The notes below the pieces were generated by a model that made no database searches, was not told the origin of the DNA, and saw only the letters and a program-made list of their open reading frames with translations. Source: an uncultured Gammaproteobacteria bacterium (lineage in GTDB: Bacteria; Patescibacteriota; Microgenomatia; UBA8517). Taken from it: a stretch of DNA of 64,000 nt. A program made the translations under genes and the position numbers. Shown in pieces: positions 1,383 to 56,225 of the stretch. The stretch spans positions 139,705-203,704 of the forward strand of contig CAZRGC010000004.1 of NCBI GenBank assembly GCA_964599625.1, given 5' to 3'. Numbering within the stretch: the first letter of the stretch is position 1; each line of letters starts with the position of its first letter.

Positions 1383-2471
1383 ATGAAAATTGGAATAGAT
1401 GGACTATTGTTTACTACTAAGTTTCCGTGTGGCACCAGAAATTATGCCGAAAAACTTGTCGCAAATTTAGCACGAATTGACAAAAAAAACGAATATTATA
1501 TTTTTGCGACCAAAGATATAACAGTCCCTAAAAGTAAAAGTTTTCATTTTATAAAAATTAAAAGCAGACTTCCGATTTTCAAGCGCCAGATAATCCTACC
1601 CGCAGTTGCAAAAAGGTATGACATAGACCTATTCCATTATTTGGAACCATTCGGGTCGCTCTTCAACACTCATGGTTCTATAATAACTACGGTTCACGAC
1701 TACAATCTTGGCTATACTTACCCTTATATTAAAAGCTTTTTTAGAAGGGTTAATGGTGAAATATTGAGAAGCTTTACCCTAAGGCGTTCAAAATATTTTA
1801 TTACCGATACAAACAACATAAAGAAGGAGTTAAATAACAACGGCTATTCTCAAAAAATCTTTAATATTTATCTAGGAGTAGACGCAATATTCAAGCCGGC
1901 AAAAGTCGGAAATAGAAAAAACAAATATATATTGGCAATGGCGGATTTTGCACCAAGAAAAAATATTAAAAACACGCTCAAGGCTTTTAGCTTGATTCAC
2001 GATAGACTACCGAAACTTAGCATCAAAGTAATAACAACTAATCAAAAGGCTAAAGAAAGGATCTATCGTGAAGCAAAATGCCTAAAAATAGCCGGGAAAG
2101 TTGATGTTTTAGAAAACGTAGATGACAAACGTTTGGCATCAATGTACAGAAATGCTGAATGTTTCGCCTACCCATCGTTGTATGAAGGGTTTGGCTTACC
2201 AATTTTGGAAGCGATGGCGTCGGGTTGCCCCGTTATAACTTCTGATTTTGGGGCCATGAAAGAAATTTCCGGAGGGGCAGCGGTTCTTGTAGACCCCAAC
2301 GATCCAGGAAGTATATCGGCAGCAATCGTAAAATTAGTTAATAACCCCACATTTAGGATGAGTAAGGTGAAATCAGGTATAAATAACGCAAAACGATTTT
2401 CTTGGAAAAATACGGCTAAAGAAACACTTAACGTATACAACTATGCATACAAACAACTTCAGAGTGAATAA
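1383..2471 (+). CDS. glycosyltransferase family 1 (GT4-type)
   Basis: C-terminal EX7E-type motif YEGFGLPILEAMASGCPVITSD typical of GT1/GT4 retaining glycosyltransferases. Confidence 0.85.
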   Translation: MKIGIDGLLFTTKFPCGTRNYAEKLVANLARIDKKNEYYIFATKDITVPKSKSFHFIKIKSRLPIFKRQIILPAVAKRYDIDLFHYLEPFGSLFNTHGSIITTVHDYNLGYTYPYIKSFFRRVNGEILRSFTLRRSKYFITDTNNIKKELNNNGYSQKIFNIYLGVDAIFKPAKVGNRKNKYILAMADFAPRKNIKNTLKAFSLIHDRLPKLSIKVITTNQKAKERIYREAKCLKIAGKVDVLENVDDKRLASMYRNAECFAYPSLYEGFGLPILEAMASGCPVITSDFGAMKEISGGAAVLVDPNDPGSISAAIVKLVNNPTFRMSKVKSGINNAKRFSWKNTAKETLNVYNYAYKQLQSE

Positions 2472-7133: not shown

Positions 7134-8486
7134 TTATTTTGTTGAGGTGATTATGCTTTGTATGCCATGAGCCTTGGAAAAACAGGTGTTTGTCCAATGG
7201 TTGGGGTCGTCACTGACATCTGATTTGTAATTATATTTGTTTATTATCTCTCTTTGGCTAAACGGTGTGCTAATGAGATTAATTTCCGGAACTTTTAGAT
7301 TTAATACACCGGACTCAACCTGCGATGCCATCAATCTGTTGCGGTTTTCAATTTGTATAGAAATATTTTGAGCCTCTTTTATGGCTGATAAGCCGTTGCC
7401 AAACGTGCTTACAACTAAAAAGGACAATAAGGTGAGTTCGAATATTGTACTTTTTGGCATCATCTCAGCCAAAAATACTATTCCCATTATTGCAATTATT
7501 TCAAATGCAAAGGCCCTTCTAAAGTTAAATAATTGTTCGGTGGGAAGGAGAGAAAAACTAAGTATTGTTCCGACAGCGATGGCAAATAAGTGCCAAAAAA
7601 ACGGTTTCTTCAGGTTCGCAAAAAAGTTTGAATTTGTCATAGATACAAACCAGAAAAAAACAAATATCCAACCTAATGTGGTTTGGCCTGCAAAAGTGTC
7701 AAGATTGTTTACAATTCTCTGGTTTAACTGAAGTGGCATTTCGTAGACAGTAGCTTTGAGAAAGTTGCCCTTAGATGAAAACAGAAGAATAGTCCCAAGC
7801 AAATGCAAAGCTGCAACAAGAACTATCGTTTTAGATAACTTGTTTTTGTTTGAGTAAATTTTGTAAGTTATAAAAACAAAAACTGCAGAAATTGCAAGAG
7901 ACATGTGTTCTATAAACATTGAACCTGTTAATGCAGCAGTGGGGTATATAAATTTTTCTAAAGTCGTTAGCTTTTTCTCTTCGTTATTTCTTACAAAATG
8001 AAGAAGTGGAATTGCGGAAACAAGTTCCAGAACAACCCCCCACAAGTAACCAATTGAACCCGTTTTCCATAATGCTATCTCCCCTACCCCTTGAGTAGCA
8101 GAAAAGACAAGGCTGAAGATTAAAAGTAATAAAATAGTGTCCCGGTATCCCCTGGGATCCCTTCCGGTAGCTAGCTTGAAAATCAGGTAGATAAGTGAGG
8201 TAAAAAAAAGAGAATTTAAAAAATTAAAATATGGCAAGGAAGACGGAATGTTTCCGAAAACCAAATAGTTAGACAAATGTGCAAAAAATCTGCCGTTCCA
8301 GTTTATGTATCTGTCTACTGCTGTTGCTATCGCTTCGGGAAAAGTTGTTGATACTGCGATTCTACAGAAATCGTCAGCCCACAATGGTGTTTTTGCATTG
8401 AGGTATAACATAAATAAAAATATTCCGAGAAGCAAAGCAAATGGAATGAGTATATTTATATGGTTTAATTTTTTTTCATTATTCAT
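7134..8486 (-). CDS. polytopic membrane protein, possible glycan polymerase / GT-C-like
   Basis: 450 aa with at least 10 predicted TM segments in the glycan locus; no soluble catalytic motif recognised. Confidence 0.45.
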   Translation of the reverse strand: MNNEKKLNHINILIPFALLLGIFLFMLYLNAKTPLWADDFCRIAVSTTFPEAIATAVDRYINWNGRFFAHLSNYLVFGNIPSSLPYFNFLNSLFFTSLIYLIFKLATGRDPRGYRDTILLLLIFSLVFSATQGVGEIALWKTGSIGYLWGVVLELVSAIPLLHFVRNNEEKKLTTLEKFIYPTAALTGSMFIEHMSLAISAVFVFITYKIYSNKNKLSKTIVLVAALHLLGTILLFSSKGNFLKATVYEMPLQLNQRIVNNLDTFAGQTTLGWIFVFFWFVSMTNSNFFANLKKPFFWHLFAIAVGTILSFSLLPTEQLFNFRRAFAFEIIAIMGIVFLAEMMPKSTIFELTLLSFLVVSTFGNGLSAIKEAQNISIQIENRNRLMASQVESGVLNLKVPEINLISTPFSQREIINKYNYKSDVSDDPNHWTNTCFSKAHGIQSIITSTK

Positions 8487-29904: not shown

Positions 29905-29952
29905 ATTCTATATGCGATTCTAAAACTTTGACGGGTCATCGTCAAAGTAAAC

Positions 29953-29974
29953 AAAAAAACCTCCTTGCGGAGGC
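29953..29974 (-). terminator. intrinsic terminator (GCAA tetraloop hairpin + U7)
   Basis: Minus strand GCCUCCGCAAGGAGGU followed by UUUUUUU. Confidence 0.6.
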
Positions 29975-30002
29975 TTGCCTTGGTTTAATGTTTCTTTAGC
30001 CA

Positions 30003-30062
30003 CTAAACGGCAACCCCGCTTGAGAGGTTGTAGTGATAGTGCCAGTTCGAAATAGTGTTCAT
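30003..30062 (-). CDS. candidate leader peptide (19 aa, MNTISNWHYHYNLSSGVAV)
   Basis: ATG lies 8 nt downstream of a TTGACA-N16-TATGAT promoter; the ORF ends about 30 nt before the terminator. Paralogous in layout and N-terminus (MNT..W.Y) to the cassette at 53379-53459. Confidence 0.3.
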   Translation of the reverse strand: MNTISNWHYHYNLSSGVAV

Positions 30063-30070
30063 ATTCCCCA

Positions 30071-30098
30071 ATCATAGCACAAAGCCTTTTCTTGTCAA
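30071..30098 (-). promoter_or_regulatory. sigma70-like promoter (TTGACA-N16-TATGAT)
   Basis: Near-consensus hexamers on the minus strand between the GNAT-like gene stop and the mini-ORF. Confidence 0.5.
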
Positions 30099-30114: not shown

Positions 30115-30810
30115 CTATTTAAAAATGTATCCTGCAAATATAATTGCATCACCCTTAAGATAGTTAAAGTCTGGTTTTTTGATAGCTATCGAATCAAATC
30201 TGGCAATATCTTCGTAAAGACTTTGGCCGCCATACCTTTCTTTATCAATTGGACCTTCCTGGGTGTCTTGCATATTTCCGGTACCAATTAGCCCCGCCAC
30301 CTCTCGGGCTAGGTCTGCGTCAAAACGAGATACTTTCTGCCCCAGCTTTTCCATTAGGACCGACTGTGTGTGAAACGCAATAATGTCTGTACTTGTAACC
30401 ATAAGCTCTCTTTGTAATATTGCTACAGAAAAATTTTTATGGTGCAGTGTGGGGTCCACAATTATTCCACCAAGGTGATACACGTTATTTTCTCTATGTT
30501 TTGCGAATCCTGCGGCAATAAAGGCAATAACTTTTCCTGACGAATCTCTGAAAACGGAAAGCCGGTCGCAGGGCACAACATGGTTATATACGTCTTCGTA
30601 CAGCCTCTGATATCCCTCTCGTGTTGTCAAATCCCTCATAAACCCAAGTCCGGTAATTGGGGTTAGCTCGTGTGATAATAATTCTTTTGCTTCGTTATCA
30701 AGTGTTCTGTCCGGCATAAGAATTACTTGCTTTGTCACGCCGGCAAAATTTTCGGCTTCCGTTCTCCCTCCAATAATAAATGTTTCTTTTTCGCTTCTCA
30801 TATAATTCAA
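30115..30810 (-). CDS. GNAT-fold acyltransferase-like protein (divergent paralog of 24641-25174)
   Basis: NNVYHLGGIIVDPTLHHKNFSVAILQREL aligns with the GNAT motif-A region NNWVELGAIVVDKGFRKSGVGHAITKDLI of the other GNAT. Start is TTG 30810 or ATG 30801. Confidence 0.5.
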   Translation of the reverse strand: MNYMRSEKETFIIGGRTEAENFAGVTKQVILMPDRTLDNEAKELLSHELTPITGLGFMRDLTTREGYQRLYEDVYNHVVPCDRLSVFRDSSGKVIAFIAAGFAKHRENNVYHLGGIIVDPTLHHKNFSVAILQRELMVTSTDIIAFHTQSVLMEKLGQKVSRFDADLAREVAGLIGTGNMQDTQEGPIDKERYGGQSLYEDIARFDSIAIKKPDFNYLKGDAIIFAGYIFK

Positions 30811-44279: not shown

Positions 44280-44324
44280 ATTAAAATTATACCCTATATT
44301 GTTTTTTATTAAAAGGGTCTTGAG

Positions 44325-44395
44325 TGGACTCAGGGGGAATCGAACCCCCGTTCCATGACTGCCAGCCATGTGTCCTACCATTGAACGACGAGCCC
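44325..44395 (-). tRNA. tRNA-Ala (anticodon GGC)
   Basis: Hand-folded cloverleaf: acceptor GGGCUCG/UGAGUCC with the G3:U70 Ala identity pair, D arm GUUC-AAUGGUA-GGAC, anticodon loop CU-GGC-AG, T arm GGGGG-UUCGAUU-CCCCC, discriminator A. CCA is not encoded. Confidence 0.85.
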
Positions 44396-49843: not shown

Positions 49844-49859
49844 GCACTGGTAACTCTTG

Positions 49860-49933
49860 TGGACGCTAAGGGACTCGAACCCCTGACCTCTTTCACGTCA
49901 AGAAAGCGCTCTAGCCAACTGAGCTAAGCGTCC
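49860..49933 (-). tRNA. tRNA-Val (anticodon GAC)
   Basis: Hand-folded: acceptor GGACGCU/AGCGUCC, D arm GCUC-AGUUGGCUA-GAGC, anticodon stem CUUUC/GAAAG with loop UU-GAC-GU, T arm AGGGG-UUCGAGU-CCCUU, discriminator A. CCA is not encoded. Confidence 0.85.
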
Positions 49934-50149: not shown

Positions 50150-50959
50150 CTAGTCGGGTGGGTGGAAGGCAAATCTGGAAAAAGATTCTTCTGCATTCAA
50201 AACTTCGTAACCCAAGCTTAGAGCAACAACTTTTCGGGCTAGGGCTTTGAGCGGATCTACCATCAAAAAGTCTTTGTTTCCGTCAAGAGCCAAAGAAATC
50301 TCAGTACACCCTGCGATAATTAACTCTGATCCTCTTTTTGTCAATTTATCGGCACTTTCCAATAGTATTTTGCGGGCCACGGGACTGACATTTTCTCCCG
50401 TTTCTTTTACTCCAAACCTTTTTGAGTAAATTGCTTCCATTACCTTTTTTTGGTCTTTTGAATCGTTTTGGAAACAGATGACCTCAATACCAAATTTCGT
50501 TAAGGCTTTCTGATACAACTTTGTTTTCAATGTTCCTGTGGTCGCTAGAATTCCCACTTTTTTGACGCCGTGATACTTAAGGGCAACCTCTCTAACTGTT
50601 TGGTCGATAATTGAAACAAACGGCACAGACAGTTTCCGTGCAACATGAGGCATATAGTAGTGAGCCGTGTTGCAAGTTGCTACTACAAAGTCGGCACCCA
50701 TAGACTCAAGAACCTTAGAAAAATAAATCATATGGCGCAAGGGATTTTTCCCATCGCCTGTGATACTTTTTGTCCGGTCAGGAGTTGAGGATCCACTGAC
50801 AGTGAACCATATAGGGGTGTTTTGATCGCCGGTGACCCCCAACTCCTTGCAAATAGAAATAAGGTGATTTTCGAATTGAATATGACTTAGCGGTCCCATT
50901 CCTCCGTAAATTCCCGGTATTAGCCTTTGCCCATTTGATAAAAAGTTAGTTTTTAACAT
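50150..50959 (-). CDS. Asp/Glu racemase family protein (aspartate-racemase-like)
   Basis: Catalytic cysteine motifs VATCNTAHYY and AGCTEISL. Confidence 0.7.
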   Translation of the reverse strand: MLKTNFLSNGQRLIPGIYGGMGPLSHIQFENHLISICKELGVTGDQNTPIWFTVSGSSTPDRTKSITGDGKNPLRHMIYFSKVLESMGADFVVATCNTAHYYMPHVARKLSVPFVSIIDQTVREVALKYHGVKKVGILATTGTLKTKLYQKALTKFGIEVICFQNDSKDQKKVMEAIYSKRFGVKETGENVSPVARKILLESADKLTKRGSELIIAGCTEISLALDGNKDFLMVDPLKALARKVVALSLGYEVLNAEESFSRFAFHPPD

Positions 50960-51824
50960 TTAAGTATTGTGATAAAACCCTTTCGGCGTTTTTGTATGCA
51001 ATTTTCTCCAGGTCGGCGTTTTTGTAACCCCTGTTTATTAAAATATTCAATAAATCTTCCAGTTTTGTTACATTCTCCAAGCCTTTTGGGGTTCCTGTTG
51101 TAATTCCTCCAAAGTCGCTTCCGATTGCGGCAACTTCAATGCCGCCAGTTTGGACCAGGTGGTCCATGTGGTTGGCAACATCTTGGATGGTGGGTGGAGA
51201 TTTGGAATTTATATATTTTCCTGAGAAAAATATTCCAATAACACCGCCCAGTTTGGAAATGGTTCTTATCTGCTCATCAGTTGTATTTCTGGGATTACCT
51301 TCAACAGAAAAGCTTGCAGTATGAGAAACAACAGGGGGTTTATCTAAAATTTTCAATGTATCCATAACAGACTTTTTACTCATGTGTGCCATGTCAACCA
51401 AAAGTCCCCTTCGAAGAGATTTTTTAACAAGATTTTTTCCTTTTGTGGATAGACCTTCCTGCGAAATGCCGGAAGAACTTCCACACAGTCCGTTATCGTG
51501 GGTATGTGCAAGGCCAATTGATTTAAGTCCACGCTCAACATATTTTTCAAAAAGTGAAGGGTCATTGGCCAAAATTTGTGCACCCTCAAGGTGAGGAAAA
51601 ACCTTAAAAACACTTTTTGAGCTCCTTATGAACTTTTCTGTTTCCAGAAACATGAGTTCGGTTTTTCCCAATTCGTCATCGTAAGAAAACCCTGCCAAAA
51701 TTGTAGAGACTTCTGTCTTTTCCAAAAGAGACGCATTTATTTGCGAAGAAGTGTTTACACCAAATAGCGTGTCAAGTTTTGCCTCCCCTAAAATAAAATC
51801 TGTGTGCAAATCGACTATTTTCAT
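50946..51824 (-). CDS. membrane dipeptidase (peptidase family M19)
   Basis: DLHTDF, HLEG, GLAHTHDN, LVDMAH, VSHTAS and GSDFGG blocks matching renal-dipeptidase-family motifs. Confidence 0.75.
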   Translation of the reverse strand: MKIVDLHTDFILGEAKLDTLFGVNTSSQINASLLEKTEVSTILAGFSYDDELGKTELMFLETEKFIRSSKSVFKVFPHLEGAQILANDPSLFEKYVERGLKSIGLAHTHDNGLCGSSSGISQEGLSTKGKNLVKKSLRRGLLVDMAHMSKKSVMDTLKILDKPPVVSHTASFSVEGNPRNTTDEQIRTISKLGGVIGIFFSGKYINSKSPPTIQDVANHMDHLVQTGGIEVAAIGSDFGGITTGTPKGLENVTKLEDLLNILINRGYKNADLEKIAYKNAERVLSQYLNVKN

Positions 51825-53272
51825 AATATTTCGGATATTTTTGACTTGAATACACCCGTGGCTATTGAAAGCTGGGAAAGATTCAATTTGTAAAATGTTT
51901 CGGGTAACACAAGAGCTGGATCATCCGGAATGTTTTCCATGGGATGCGAGTTTTGTGTAAACCGTGACAAAAATGCAGCTGACAAATCCTTGTGTAAACC
52001 ACGCGACACAAAGTCTTCAGCAACACGACCTACATAATCCAAACTTTTATTTTTAGAGGGTTTATCCTGCGGCTCCTTAGATATTTGTTCCAAAAAACTA
52101 TTAACCGCAGATACTTCGGCTTTTTGGTTTTTGTGAGGAAGAAGCTGAAAAATACCAGCAGGCATCAGAGTATAGGCTATAGGTAATACAGCTTCTTTGC
52201 TTCCTTTGGTGATAAGTGCCATCAAAAGTTTAAGGTCTGACACGGCGCTTTGAAAATAGCCCCGGTCGCGCCCAACTCCAGCCATCTGAAGACCTCCCCA
52301 GTGAAAATGAGGATTTATTTTACCCTGCGATTTTACTCCTTGAGTAAAATCCGTATCCAATAATGCAAAGGTGAGCATCAAAAATTCTTTACCCATTAAC
52401 GGCATCTTTTCCGGTAAACTCCGTGCTATTTCCACAAATTTTTCCGGATGTGAAGCAATATATAAATTAATTTTCAACCTTGCCAATAAGTCGTCCCATG
52501 AATAATACTTCCCATTTTCTGTCACTCCATTGTCACCAACAGAAAAGTTACTTTTGCTCACAACTCCATCAATATTTACCCAGCGGTCAAATACTTTGGA
52601 CAAAGTTTTTTTTCTTTGAAACGGGTCGCTATCCAATAAAACTCTTTGGATCACGTTTCTGATATTCGATTCAAGATGATCCCAGTTTTCATACAAAACA
52701 TCTGAGGAATAAACTGCGTTTTGCAAATTCCGCAAACGGAGCCTGTGTATGTGGTTGATTGCCATTAATCCGTCTTTTGTATTTGCAACAACAAAGGGTG
52801 AATACAATGCCTCGCCCTGCACCGCGTGGAATCTGCCGTGTCTAAGAACATACTTGGGTAAATCCACAACTTGCCCTTTTTCCAAAATGGTTCCTGGGTA
52901 ATACAAATTATCACCCAATCCTCCACCAGGGGTCATGTTTGTGTCAAACAACAGTGGGTATCCAAGCCCCAACTCCGTTACACCTCTATTGAAAGCTACA
53001 CTCCCGCCGCCACCTTGAGCAATTGCTTCCCAACTTCCACCAATATGCCCGGTTCGAGGCGCGAACACATAGTCACGGTGGTTTGTTATCCAGCTATAGA
53101 AATGTTCAAAAGGTATTTTACTTTCACCAACATCTTTCCAGGAAAAAACATTGGTAGCTTCCAAAACTTCTTTTTCTGATTTAGCCAACCCTAACTCCAC
53201 GTAAACCTCTGCCGCGTCCAATCTGCGGTTAACTTTTAGTTCCAGTTCTTGGTTTTTGTTTTCGATTGTCAT
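51821..53272 (-). CDS. hypothetical protein (483 aa), Gly-rich GHIGGSWEAIAQGGGGSVAF region
   Basis: Long ORF translationally coupled to the M19 dipeptidase; no confident family assignment. Confidence 0.5.
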   Translation of the reverse strand: MTIENKNQELELKVNRRLDAAEVYVELGLAKSEKEVLEATNVFSWKDVGESKIPFEHFYSWITNHRDYVFAPRTGHIGGSWEAIAQGGGGSVAFNRGVTELGLGYPLLFDTNMTPGGGLGDNLYYPGTILEKGQVVDLPKYVLRHGRFHAVQGEALYSPFVVANTKDGLMAINHIHRLRLRNLQNAVYSSDVLYENWDHLESNIRNVIQRVLLDSDPFQRKKTLSKVFDRWVNIDGVVSKSNFSVGDNGVTENGKYYSWDDLLARLKINLYIASHPEKFVEIARSLPEKMPLMGKEFLMLTFALLDTDFTQGVKSQGKINPHFHWGGLQMAGVGRDRGYFQSAVSDLKLLMALITKGSKEAVLPIAYTLMPAGIFQLLPHKNQKAEVSAVNSFLEQISKEPQDKPSKNKSLDYVGRVAEDFVSRGLHKDLSAAFLSRFTQNSHPMENIPDDPALVLPETFYKLNLSQLSIATGVFKSKISEIL

Positions 53273-53327
53273 AGGTTAAACAGAATCTACCTCGACATAA
53301 ATCTTCGGTAGTTTCCGCCTTCGGCAT

Positions 53328-53350
53328 AAAAAAACCTCTCTTGCGAGAGG
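53328..53350 (-). terminator. intrinsic terminator (GCAA tetraloop hairpin + U7)
   Basis: Minus strand CCUCUC-GCAA-GAGAGG followed by UUUUUUU; A-tract on the other side, so possibly bidirectional. Confidence 0.6.
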
Positions 53351-53378
53351 TTGTCTTTTTCTATTTTTTTTGTTTTTA

Positions 53379-53459
53379 CTAGCTTTGAACTTCTCTCGCC
53401 ACGTTATATAAGCCCTTAATAAGGGTAAAACAGACGAGCATGTACCAAGCCGTATTCAT
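53379..53459 (-). CDS. candidate leader peptide (26 aa, MNTAWYMLVCFTLIKGLYNVAREVQS)
   Basis: ATG lies 11 nt downstream of a TTGACA-N18-TAGAAT promoter and the ORF ends about 28 nt before the terminator. Same geometry as cassette 30003-30098. Confidence 0.3.
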   Translation of the reverse strand: MNTAWYMLVCFTLIKGLYNVAREVQS

Positions 53460-53470
53460 TTCAAGTCTAA

Positions 53471-53500
53471 ATTCTAAAAAACACACCAGCTATCTGTCAA
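53471..53500 (-). promoter_or_regulatory. sigma70-like promoter (TTGACA-N18-TAGAAT)
   Basis: Consensus -35 on the minus strand immediately after the M20 gene stop. Confidence 0.45.
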
Positions 53501-54843: not shown

Positions 54844-54869
54844 AAAAAAACTCTCCTTTTTGGTGAGAG
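54844..54869 (-). terminator. intrinsic terminator / possible attenuator 13 nt upstream of the M20 start
   Basis: Minus strand CUCUCACC-AAAAA-GGAGAG followed by UUUUUUU. Confidence 0.4.
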
Positions 54870-55037
54870 TTTTGCTTGTTTAAGCTTAAATTAATTTTTT
54901 TATATACCTCTCTCACCACGCATAACCTTCTTCCACGAATGGAAATAGGAGTTAAACATGTAGGAAAGACGTGTCATTGTCTGTATTTTAGCTTTTAAAG
55001 ACACTGAAGGTCAAGAAGATTCCGAATTATCGGCAAA

Positions 55038-56225
55038 TTACCCTTCAAGTGACAACCCGTTTGCAACCAACTGCCCAATATCTTCCATATCTTCGGAGGT
55101 GCGAAGTATGAAGTTTTGCGGTACTTTCACACCCGACTTTCGGCACGATTCGGCAATCATGTTCATCCACTTGTTTCTTATGTCCGGTTCGTCATATTCA
55201 TCAAAAAGTGTTTGAGGTTCTCTAAACATAAGCATTTCCTCACGGCTGGGGTTTGTCCAATCAAAAACAATCAAATCAATTCTGCCTGTTTCTGCAAGCT
55301 GCATACATGCCGAAAGATTTGCCTCAGTGATAATATCCACCCCCTTAAATCTTCCGTCTTTCTGTAGCTTTTGATGCAGATTGTCCCTAACCCGGCCGTA
55401 ATTGTACAGATCGTTTTCAACCAAAAGTATAGTTGCCGGACCAAAAACCCTCCGCCCATTCTCGATACTCACGACATCCAAATTCCCGAAAGTTTCCGAC
55501 AAAGGGATATTGGGATTACGCTTGTCAGCCTCCCATTTCGTCCTTTCTTTGATAACGTTGGCTTCATACAAAACGTGTTCTTTTATACGCTTTTCTTTTT
55601 TGCCTGCTAAACTAACTGCCTTAGTCAAAAATTTATCTACACCAGGAATTGAACCTGACTCCATGAGTTTTCGAAGGTCTTCAGATTTTGACAAAATCGG
55701 AGGCATATGAAGTCCGCGGGACTTCATATGGGTCATAATCACCAAATAAATGTTTTCAAAGTAGCTGTCTTGGTCAGACAGGCTCTCCAAAGTAATTCGT
55801 TCGAAGTCCATAAACGGAACTTCGGTGTCGGGACCACCTCTCATACGGCTAAACTCATCCATTACCAATTTTCTTGTTTTGATTGGATCTGTTAAGTCAG
55901 ATTTCGGAATCTCTCCGGACACATTTGTCATGCCGCCAACAGAAAAAATCTTTTTACCGTTAAATGCTACTCCCCACGATTTTGTGGGCAAATAAGTATC
56001 TCCATCTGTGTGTCTGTCTGAATATTCGATCCTGGCTAAAATTTTATATTCCGCACCCTCTCCCGACAAAGTTAGAGCAAACGTAAAAAACTCCTGAGAT
56101 CTTTTGCCTGTTATTTTGTTTTGAAGTTCAGGGAAAAGGCTCTGCTCTGTAGCGTCTAACCCTGTTATGTCAGCGAAAAACTTTGCTTCTGTCGCCAGTT
56201 CACTGTTTTTGATTCTTTCTTTCAT
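55038..56225 (-). CDS. hypothetical protein with C-terminal response-regulator receiver-like domain
   Basis: C-terminal ATILLVENDLYNYGRVRDNL...GRIDLIVFDW resembles REC-domain beta1 and beta3. The N-terminal ~250 aa is unassigned. Confidence 0.45.
   Translation of the reverse strand: MKERIKNSELATEAKFFADITGLDATEQSLFPELQNKITGKRSQEFFTFALTLSGEGAEYKILARIEYSDRHTDGDTYLPTKSWGVAFNGKKIFSVGGMTNVSGEIPKSDLTDPIKTRKLVMDEFSRMRGGPDTEVPFMDFERITLESLSDQDSYFENIYLVIMTHMKSRGLHMPPILSKSEDLRKLMESGSIPGVDKFLTKAVSLAGKKEKRIKEHVLYEANVIKERTKWEADKRNPNIPLSETFGNLDVVSIENGRRVFGPATILLVENDLYNYGRVRDNLHQKLQKDGRFKGVDIITEANLSACMQLAETGRIDLIVFDWTNPSREEMLMFREPQTLFDEYDEPDIRNKWMNMIAESCRKSGVKVPQNFILRTSEDMEDIGQLVANGLSLEG

Follow-up and report, generated by a model that had tools for sequence, protein, structure and literature searches.

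A probable leader-peptide transcription attenuator ahead of a DUF6025-dipeptidase-racemase operon, and the RNA family to which it belongs

Introduction

Why should a complete small transcription unit, with its own promoter, short open reading frame (ORF) and terminator, stand directly ahead of an operon? The question is raised by a 64,000-nucleotide stretch of DNA (the window, positions 139,705 to 203,704 of contig CAZRGC010000004.1), which carries such a unit on its minus strand at about 53 kb, upstream of genes for a DUF6025 protein, an M19 dipeptidase and an Asp/Glu-type racemase. Our analysis gives a probability of about 0.72 that this unit, the 53-kb leader, is a ribosome-mediated (leader-peptide) transcription attenuator of the operon that follows it. 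For the family of related leaders taken together we are more confident of the mechanism; the identity of the sensed amino acid is less certain.

To our knowledge, organisms of the Candidate Phyla Radiation (CPR, or Patescibacteria) have tiny genomes, no known amino-acid biosynthesis and few recognisable regulators, and almost nothing is known of gene regulation in them. If the leader works as proposed here, CPR organisms would monitor amino-acid supply directly through translation, the genes under the attenuator would form a regulon by which their peptide-scavenging machinery could be recognised, and functional hints would follow for several unknown protein families, DUF6025 among them. The RNA motif shows clear covariation and lies outside Rfam; it could serve in the annotation of CPR genomes, and in vitro tests of it would need no culture.

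Layout of the 53-kb leader

An earlier, sequence-only reading of the window had described a promoter, a mini-ORF and a terminator with a GCAA loop at 53 kb, upstream of an operon for a 483-aa protein, an M19 dipeptidase and a racemase. Every element was found in its place on the minus strand, and the 483-aa gene, which encodes the DUF6025 protein, begins 55 nt past the U-run (Table 1). The ATG of the mini-ORF lies 11 nt 3' of the -10 box and has no Shine-Dalgarno sequence, and the terminator alone folds at -12.8 kcal/mol. A motif search of the kind that the same reading had proposed, run over the window as TTGACA-N15-19-TANNAT-N5-20-ATGAAYAC, returned 2 matches against 0.00 expected from 100 shuffles. 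The covariance model of the family described below matches the site with 98.6 bits (E 2e-16).

No promoter-like site was found in the 55-nt spacer between the terminator and DUF6025. The further hairpin that had been noted there is indeed predicted (-17.7 kcal/mol, z -1.9), but it falls in a 43-nt insertion missing from relatives of 93% and 76% identity and is not a conserved part of the leader. This insertion (~53278-53322, minus strand) also holds a direct repeat, CCGAAG...CCGAAG; it occurs as a single copy in the window and is missing in L001 (93% protein identity) and L002. The terminator matches on the plus strand as well, but a plus-strand reading was rejected, since all neighbouring genes run on the minus strand and none that is credible converges on the 53-kb terminator from the plus strand.

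A family of leaders

The DUF6025 protein of the window has few homologues, and the leader precedes the gene in five diverged relatives whose DUF6025 proteins are 44-76% identical. Their neighbourhood consists of trigger factor, DUF5660, in most cases an M20 peptidase, and then DUF6025 and the M19 peptidase; the order DUF6025-M19-racemase after the leader recurs in L001, L002, L004, L009 and L021. The promoter, the ATG-initiated short ORF, a small hairpin (P1), the motif GUGGYGNGRGA, an A-rich linker and the terminator are all kept in these relatives. The P1 stem persists with differing sequences (CCCUU/AAGGG, CCUC/GGGG, CUCC/GGAG), and its pairs covary. From the U-run to the DUF6025 start there are only ~12-20 nt in the relatives, a gap that cannot hold a promoter of its own, so DUF6025 must there be transcribed through the terminator.

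Pattern scans (GTGGNGNGNGA-N28-58-CCTCTC-N4-5-GAGAGGTTTT) over one representative genome per species and over JGI metagenomes returned 11 plus 32 loci, all except two of them true members, giving ~26 distinct sequences. The pattern fixed parts of the motif and of the terminator stem and left the loop bases free. Searches with a covariance model built from 25 members (R1; R2 below is a broader model) added further, more divergent copies, bringing the family to ~30 distinct members in public genomes and metagenomes. Several copies may occur in a single genome: the window, L020 and L025 each hold a second one. This spread, together with the conservation ahead of DUF6025, bears out the proposal that a functional regulatory family, and not chance, accounts for the cassette.

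A promoter with a 16-18 nt spacer was present in 29/29 family and cassette sequences examined. Every member has the motif GUGG[U/C/G]GAGRG, followed by a linker of 28-58 nt that varies in length and sequence but is always A/C-rich and G-poor. The GCAA loop, which the sequence-only reading had taken as a mark of the cassette, holds for the subgroup that includes the 53-kb leader; most members instead have the loop ACCAC, complementary to the upstream GUGGU. Downstream genes start at most 27 nt after the U-run in 22/26 loci (one more locus has no downstream ORF called), and in many loci a strong Shine-Dalgarno sequence (AAAGGAGGUGA) precedes them.

The family is missing from Rfam 15. At gathering thresholds, Rfam finds only two tRNAs in the whole window. 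Permissive scans of the 53-kb leader and of the cassette at 30 kb (below) yielded nothing but sub-threshold noise; among leaders, riboswitches and T-box the best such scores at the 53-kb locus are 12.6-20.5 bits against gathering scores of 47-115. The named contigs that carry members belong to Candidatus Woesebacteria or Blackburnbacteria metagenome-assembled genomes (MAGs; Microgenomates, CPR), and the CPR-typical domains DUF5660 and DUF5665 neighbour the leader in relatives. From these contig titles and neighbouring domains the family appears to be a Woesebacteria/Microgenomates-type CPR element. The contigs of L014, L016, L019 and L020, with CPR-type leader and neighbours, are titled 'uncultured Gammaproteobacteria bacterium', which looks like a MAG mislabel.

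Alternative RNA helices

The leader RNA can form three mutually exclusive helices, 1:2, 2:3 and the terminator 3:4. The motif, which constitutes region 2, has two alternative partners. One is a pyrimidine stretch near the start of the ORF, which reads UCUCUCAU in most members and CUCGUC in the subgroup of the window. The other is the 5' arm and loop of the terminator, CCUCUC-ACCAC in the majority and CCUCUC-GC in the subgroup of the window, where the G and C of the loop take part in the antiterminator pairing. The minimum free energy (MFE) structure of the 53-kb leader pairs CUCGUC(UGUU) with (AACG)-GGCGAG as its 1:2 helix.

For the family as a whole, RNAalifold predicts the 1:2 helix and the terminator. 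The 1:2 helix is 90% paired, compared with 46-66% in slid controls, and the complete terminated state (1:2 helix, P1 and terminator) 93.5%, compared with 46-66%. The antiterminator helix 2:3 reaches 96.7%, where its slid controls give 38-61%.

In the antiterminator, pair 78-153 is G-C in 25/25 sequences, pair 77-154 is U-A in 24 and U-G in 1, and pair 79-152 is G-C in 18 and G-U in 2. Pair 80-151, which joins motif position 5 to the first loop base, covaries (U-A 17, C-G 3, U-G 3, G-C 1), and an alignment based on the covariance model gives agreeing counts for the loop pairs. The terminator loop thus complements GUGGU although its bases were unconstrained in the search. At L020, one position has changed in all three strands (C/G/C; CUCUCC, GGGGAGAG, CUCUCCCC), with both 1:2 and 2:3 kept.

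The leader ORF and its peptide

The ATG stands 6-12 nt after the -10 box in 28/29 sequences, again with no Shine-Dalgarno sequence; with the transcription start taken from the -10 box, the ORF would be leaderless or nearly so. In 26/26 members this frame runs through 16 codons or more without a stop; the same holds for the two remaining frames in 6/26 and 10/26. Gap lengths within the ORF are divisible by three, and L047 has an in-frame insertion of 45 nt. The ratio of non-synonymous to synonymous change (pN/pS) in the 17-codon subgroup is 0.92, similar to off-frame controls (0.91 and 1.18), and a conserved functional micro-protein was dropped as a candidate on this ground. The pattern suggests a frame that is kept open around a peptide that is not conserved, as expected of a leader peptide that counts through being translated and not through its product.

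In the 18 members with short ORFs the stop codon lies 1-6 nt ahead of the motif; in the other 8 it falls 17-24 nt beyond the start of the motif. In both positions, a ribosome that finishes the ORF would disable region 2.

Ile (2.1x) and Leu (1.8x) are over-represented in the family peptides, and Lys is depleted; Pro does not occur, and some peptides contain runs of a single residue. One leader of L020 encodes MYRELSLLSLLSLLLLEE, with the Leu-rich stretch LSLLSLLSLLLL, and the other (L020b) the Phe-rich MQSNSFAFQTFFFFFN, with FFFFF; the leader of L022 encodes MNIISLIIIIIVLFTGT, with IIIII. Variants that are not hydrophobic also exist, for example MTRLSYMFNSYFHSWKK... In the window copy, codons ~4-11 form a mixed stretch (A-W-Y-M-L-V-C-F) with no single-residue run.

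Proposed mechanism

The features expected of a ribosome-mediated attenuator come together here: a maintained short ORF, an intrinsic terminator on whose read-through the downstream genes depend, a covarying 2:3 helix, and a 1:2 helix that overlaps the ORF. Codons clustered where a stall would free region 2 are seen as runs in some relatives and not in the window copy.

Transcription would start a few nucleotides before the AUG, and the 26-codon ORF would be translated leaderless or near-leaderless. With no ribosome loaded, or with one that reaches the stop codon without hindrance, region 2 (GUGGCGAGAG) would either be held by region 1 (CUCGUC...) or lie under the ribosome; the terminator CCUCUC-GCAA-GAGAGG-U7 would form, ending the transcript at ~125-130 nt. 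An early stall, roughly at codons 4-11, would place the ribosome over region 1 and free region 2, which could then capture the emerging 5' arm of the terminator with its first two loop bases (CUCUCGC); the terminator would be blocked, and RNA polymerase would read into the operon. The stalling signal would be that charged tRNAs for hydrophobic or aromatic amino acids run short, and starvation would switch on peptidases that release amino acids the organism presumably cannot make.

This scheme was modelled by placing a 30-nt ribosome footprint on the ORF codon by codon and computing the probability of the terminator helix by partition-function folding. In at least 14 members the probability is ~0.95 in free RNA, ~0 with the ribosome at codons 4-13 and ~1 with the ribosome at the stop codon. 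Positions at which the switch turns on are 61% I/L/V/F/M, compared with 39% elsewhere. A second leader of the window, leader A (below), switches in the model.

Several observations weigh against the scheme. The window copy and those of L002, L004 and L009 keep the terminator at every ribosome position in this equilibrium model, and the antiterminator of the GCAA-loop subgroup has only 7 bp across a 45-nt loop. In the window, the 2:3 helix is the MFE structure only before the 3' arm of the terminator has been made (-12.3 against -12.8 kcal/mol for the terminator), so that switching would need to be kinetic. A similar energy relationship holds in the E. coli trp leader, where antitermination is kinetic. 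The function of the window copy is nevertheless less certain, since its antiterminator is predicted to be favoured only in a co-transcriptional intermediate. Its peptide has no single-residue run, so the sensed amino acid is not readable from it, and the abundance of hydrophobic codons may in part reflect the pyrimidine-rich strands needed for the RNA helices. The invariance of motif and stem is partly due to the search pattern, which fixed those parts; copies found by covariance model deviate in them (ACUCUC, CCUCC, AUCUC).

Alternative explanations

The alternative that survives best, though an improbable one, keeps the switch and changes its trigger, such that a protein or small ligand would act on the 1:2/P1 hairpin or on GUGGYGAGRG and the open frame would be incidental. 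Conservation of motif and hairpin at the nucleotide level, a peptide that shows no purifying selection, and a window copy that does not switch at equilibrium under the ribosome mask would all fit such a trigger. It accords poorly with a frame that is open in every member while the other two are mostly closed, with the fixed distance from -10 box to ATG, with indels that stay in frame, with the FFFFF, poly-Leu and poly-Ile runs, and with stop codons set just before or after region 2; nor was any Rfam riboswitch or T-box matched.

Slightly less probable still is an attenuator that works by nascent-peptide arrest, as in erm/cat/TnaC-type leaders, the ribosome being stalled by a small molecule, an antibiotic or membrane-insertion status and not by charged-tRNA supply. 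Its RNA logic would be identical, and the window copy, lacking a strict run of one amino acid, and the hydrophobic family peptides, similar in composition to short arrest or leader peptides, would suit it. Arrest peptides need specific residues, however, whereas these drift freely; the genes downstream are peptidases and salvage enzymes and not resistance genes, and the leaders of two paralogous M24 operons are Leu-rich in one case and Phe-rich in the other.

The least probable reading is that of an independent small gene lying merely beside the operon, either for a small RNA that acts in trans or for a small hydrophobic protein of toxin-like or membrane type; the terminator would then just close off this gene and the upstream M20 gene. 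It could draw on the complete ~130-nt promoter-to-terminator unit, on hydrophobic peptides of 16-33 residues resembling type I toxins, on a second promoter after the terminator of the cassette at 30 kb (below) and on attenuator RNAs that can act in trans in other bacteria (PMC7968998). Against it, 22/26 loci have no room for a promoter before the next gene, and the spacer of the window has no promoter-like site. A covarying antiterminator would have no role in such a gene, and the reading is at odds with the absence of peptide-level purifying selection and with the peptide variants that are not hydrophobic.

Other leaders in the window

Leader-peptide attenuation, the preferred reading, would extend to a second family member in the window, leader A, which lies 1.4 kb upstream of the 53-kb leader and was absent from the list of the sequence-only reading. 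It matches the family models at 54983-54844 with 47.9 bits (E 1e-6, R1) and 75.1 bits (R2), and the ATG of an M20 peptidase gene lies 13 nt downstream of its terminator. Leader A is kept in L001 and L002; over the first 15 codons it differs from the L002 copy by 4 synonymous and 2 non-synonymous changes. By these sequence comparisons it is a true family paralogue of the 53-kb leader.

The stop codon of this M20 gene lies 10 nt before the -35 box of the 53-kb leader, and no other terminator was found from the stop (53511) to the 53-kb terminator. As none lies between the stop and the 53-kb promoter, M20 transcripts probably also end at the 53-kb terminator. On such transcripts the leader ORF would be internal, with no Shine-Dalgarno sequence, and should stay untranslated, and the RNA should fold into its terminating form.

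A cassette at 30 kb had been paired with the 53-kb leader as a paralogue. The analysis does not bear out that part of the proposal: the family models score the site at 18.5 bits (E 0.53, R1) and 20.6 bits (E 0.28, R2), about the same as an intragenic chance match at 11.6 kb. A covariance-model comparison, which had been suggested as a check, thus recovers the 53-kb site and gives non-significant scores at 30 kb, where only the architecture is shared. An architecture scan of the window (promoter, ATG 5-13 nt after the -10 box, ORF of 8-45 codons) gave exactly three sites, starting at 55014, 53500 and 30098, with terminators at all three.

The 30-kb cassette stands upstream of genes for an M20 peptidase (363 aa) and tyrS, and the pairings 1:2, 2:3 and 3:4 can be drawn for it. 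It is kept in the 78%-identity relative L055 (at 2340-2500; peptide MSMNTYWHYFDLLSRGAAI, compared with MNTISNWHYHYNLSSGVAV in the window), where it adjoins the M20-tyrS genes at a distance of 12 nt and no further promoter intervenes. In the window, by contrast, the stretch between its terminator and these genes holds a second promoter-like site (TTGACG-N17-TAGAAT, 29917-29945, minus strand). The cassette is missing in L056 (17-nt gap) and in L058 (transposase upstream). It is a device of the same kind, but not one that can be counted as a paralogue. With tyrS downstream and Tyr codons ahead of region 1, it could respond to Tyr.

Table 1. Features of the leaders, the 30-kb cassette and the adjoining genes (window coordinates; position 1 is the first nucleotide of the window)
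Feature	Position	Strand	Sequence or evidence
53-kb leader: promoter, sigma-70-type	53471..53500	-	TTGACA 53500-53495, 18-nt spacer, TAGAAT 53476-53471; 11/12 consensus match
53-kb leader: mini-ORF	53379..53459	-	ATG 53459-53457, 26 codons + TAG (53381-53379); encodes MNTAWYMLVCFTLIKGLYNVAREVQS
53-kb leader: region 1	53429..53438	-	CUCGUCUGUU, codons 8-11; predicted anti-antiterminator partner of region 2 (MFE structures)
53-kb leader: hairpin P1	53413..53425	-	CCCUU-AUU-AAGGG; within ORF, tip of 1:2 hairpin
53-kb leader: region 2, conserved motif	53391..53402	-	GUGGCGAGAGAA; GGCGAG pairs with region 1
53-kb leader: predicted antiterminator 2:3	53399-53393 : 53349-53343	-	GCGAGAG : CUCUCGC; 7 bp
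53-kb leader: linker	53353..53378	-	26-28 nt, A-rich, G-poor, unstructured; between region 2 and terminator
53-kb leader: intrinsic terminator, regions 3 + 4	53328..53352	-	AACCUCUC-GCAA-GAGAGGUU + U7; 8 pairs
Spacer to DUF6025 ATG	53273..53327	-	55 nt; 43-nt window-specific insertion with predicted hairpin
Operon DUF6025-M19-racemase, predicted to be regulated	50150..53272	-	Pfam + NCBIfam matches
DUF6025 protein gene, 483 aa	53272-51821	-	Pfam/NCBIfam
M19 dipeptidase gene	51824-50946	-	Pfam/NCBIfam
Asp/Glu-type racemase gene	50959-50150	-	Pfam/NCBIfam
M20 family dipeptidase gene, 439 aa	53511..54830	-	Pfam/NCBIfam; preceded by leader A
Leader A	54844..55014	-	Covariance-model matches
Leader A: promoter	55014-54985	-	TTGACC-N18-TAAAAT
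Leader A: ORF	ATG 54977, end 54900	-	MTRLSYMFNSYFHSWKKVMRGERGI
Leader A: motif	54919-54910	-	GUGGUGAGAG
Leader A: terminator	54872-54844	-	AAACUCUC-ACCAAAAAG-GAGAGUU-U7
30-kb cassette	29950..30098	-	TTGACA-N16-TATGAT; ATG 30062-30060; ORF MNTISNWHYHYNLSSGVAV
30-kb cassette: terminator	within 29950..30098	-	AAGCCUCC-GCAA-GGAGGUUU-U7

Comparison with known systems

Classical leader-peptide attenuators are those of the trp, leu, ilvGMEDA/ilvBN, pheA, his and thr operons and of pheST in Enterobacteria. The CPR leaders resemble them in the promoter-proximal short ORF, in exclusive helices 1:2, 2:3 and 3:4 of which 3:4 is a terminator with a U-run, in a stop codon placed so that a finishing ribosome disables region 2, and in the single-residue runs of some members (FFFFF, Leu-rich, IIIII). 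The multivalent hydrophobic composition of the peptides recalls the ilv leaders. They differ in that the ORF starts 6-12 nt after the -10 box with no Shine-Dalgarno sequence, the antiterminator uses the terminator loop, the genes controlled are for peptidases, racemase and unknown proteins and not biosynthetic operons, the host is CPR/Woesebacteria-type, and the window copy lacks a run. The Rfam leader models tested (Phe_leader RF01859, Thr_leader RF00506) reach 16.7-17.5 bits at best, against a gathering score of 55.

Type I toxins are very short hydrophobic proteins, and the CPR ORFs share their size (16-33 residues), their hydrophobicity and the possession of a promoter of their own. In contrast to such toxins, the CPR peptide is unconserved and has variants that are not hydrophobic, and its ORF is embedded in a switch directly before enzyme genes.

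In the mycobacterial 'ribulon', ribosomes stalled on polycysteine leaderless short ORFs keep the downstream ribosome-binding site from being sequestered in an RNA structure, and cysteine is sensed (bioRxiv 10.1101/834739). The CPR elements share with it a short, putatively leaderless ORF as first cistron, stalling as the putative sensor and several operons per genome that each have a copy of their own, for a collective response. Unlike it, they have an intrinsic terminator with a covarying antiterminator in place of translational control, and hydrophobic or aromatic codons; cysteine accounts for 5 of the 506 residues of the family peptides.

For rnTrpL/peTrpL of Sinorhizobium meliloti, trans-acting roles of the terminated RNA and of the leader peptide are documented (PMC7968998). 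The CPR leaders are similar to this trp-type attenuator in that each would yield a short terminated RNA encoding a leader peptide. By analogy, a trans-acting role for the CPR terminated RNA is only a possibility. The terminated leader RNAs of one genome might also act on each other in trans through the complementary motifs GUGGUGAGAG and CCUCUCACCAC.

A full-text literature search found no paper linking attenuation or leader peptides to CPR lineages. The CPR leaders depart from known attenuators in their ORF, which would be leaderless, in an antiterminator that draws on the terminator loop, in a regulon of peptidase and salvage genes, and in the phylum. It is conceivable, though on balance doubtful, that the cassettes form a Woesebacteria-type 'ribulon', with several leaderless attenuators per genome, each tuned by its codons (Phe, Leu, Ile/Val, Tyr/Trp/His) and each gating its own paralogous peptidase or salvage operon. 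A cell so equipped would turn on the enzymes that liberate whichever amino acid is lacking, and the leader peptides would predict the substrate preferences of DUF6025, of the CPPYDY proteins and of the small 50-99-aa proteins described below.

The regulon and neighbouring genes

Across the family, the genes downstream of the leader encode M20, M19, M24 and S58 peptidases, the racemase, a GCS2-like ligase, DUF6025 and other unknown proteins of 350-660 aa. In its peptidases, racemase and ligase the leader regulon is coherent. L020 carries two leaders, at 2000-2131 (plus strand) and 7570-7707 (minus strand), the one Leu-rich and the other Phe-rich (FFFFF). They precede paralogous, convergent operons ~5 kb apart, each with an unknown protein and an M24 peptidase, and the two M24 proteins are 44% identical.

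The gene that directly follows the leader codes, in about ten loci, for a small hydrophilic protein (51-99 aa) and has a strong Shine-Dalgarno sequence. Loci with such genes are L022, L023, L024, L025 (1882-2037), L026, L031, L034, L041, L042, L046 and L050. The small proteins are mostly unrelated in sequence, those of L022 and L042 being homologous, and several end in ...LP(S/E)L; BLASTP found no match between them and other regulon proteins. At L023 the small gene is followed by genes for an unknown 521-aa protein and an S58 peptidase.

Another group of 400-660 aa, with no Pfam domain, carries the motif (S/T)P(L/V)CPPYDY. Its genes stand first after the leader in L011 (5487-6689), L017 (6177-8000), L025, L036 and L052, and are followed by an M20 peptidase gene in 5/5 loci. 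L015/L039 has a GCS2-like carboxylate-amine ligase instead.

Searching PDB sequences with a profile gave no match that might hint at the function of DUF6025, and a Foldseek search of the PDB with an AlphaFold2 model of poor quality (predicted local distance difference test score 63.7) gave nothing with E below 2. No paper mentioning DUF6025 was found in the literature.

Two further minus-strand ORFs of the window, 55038-56225 (395 aa) and 30115-30810 (231 aa), have no Pfam or NCBIfam match. The position of the 395-aa gene, between DUF5660 and the M20 leader, is kept in L001 and L002. The minus strand also carries tRNA-Ala(GGC) at 44324-44395 and tRNA-Val(GAC) at 49859-49933, the latter ~200 nt past the racemase gene, with which the putatively regulated operon ends.

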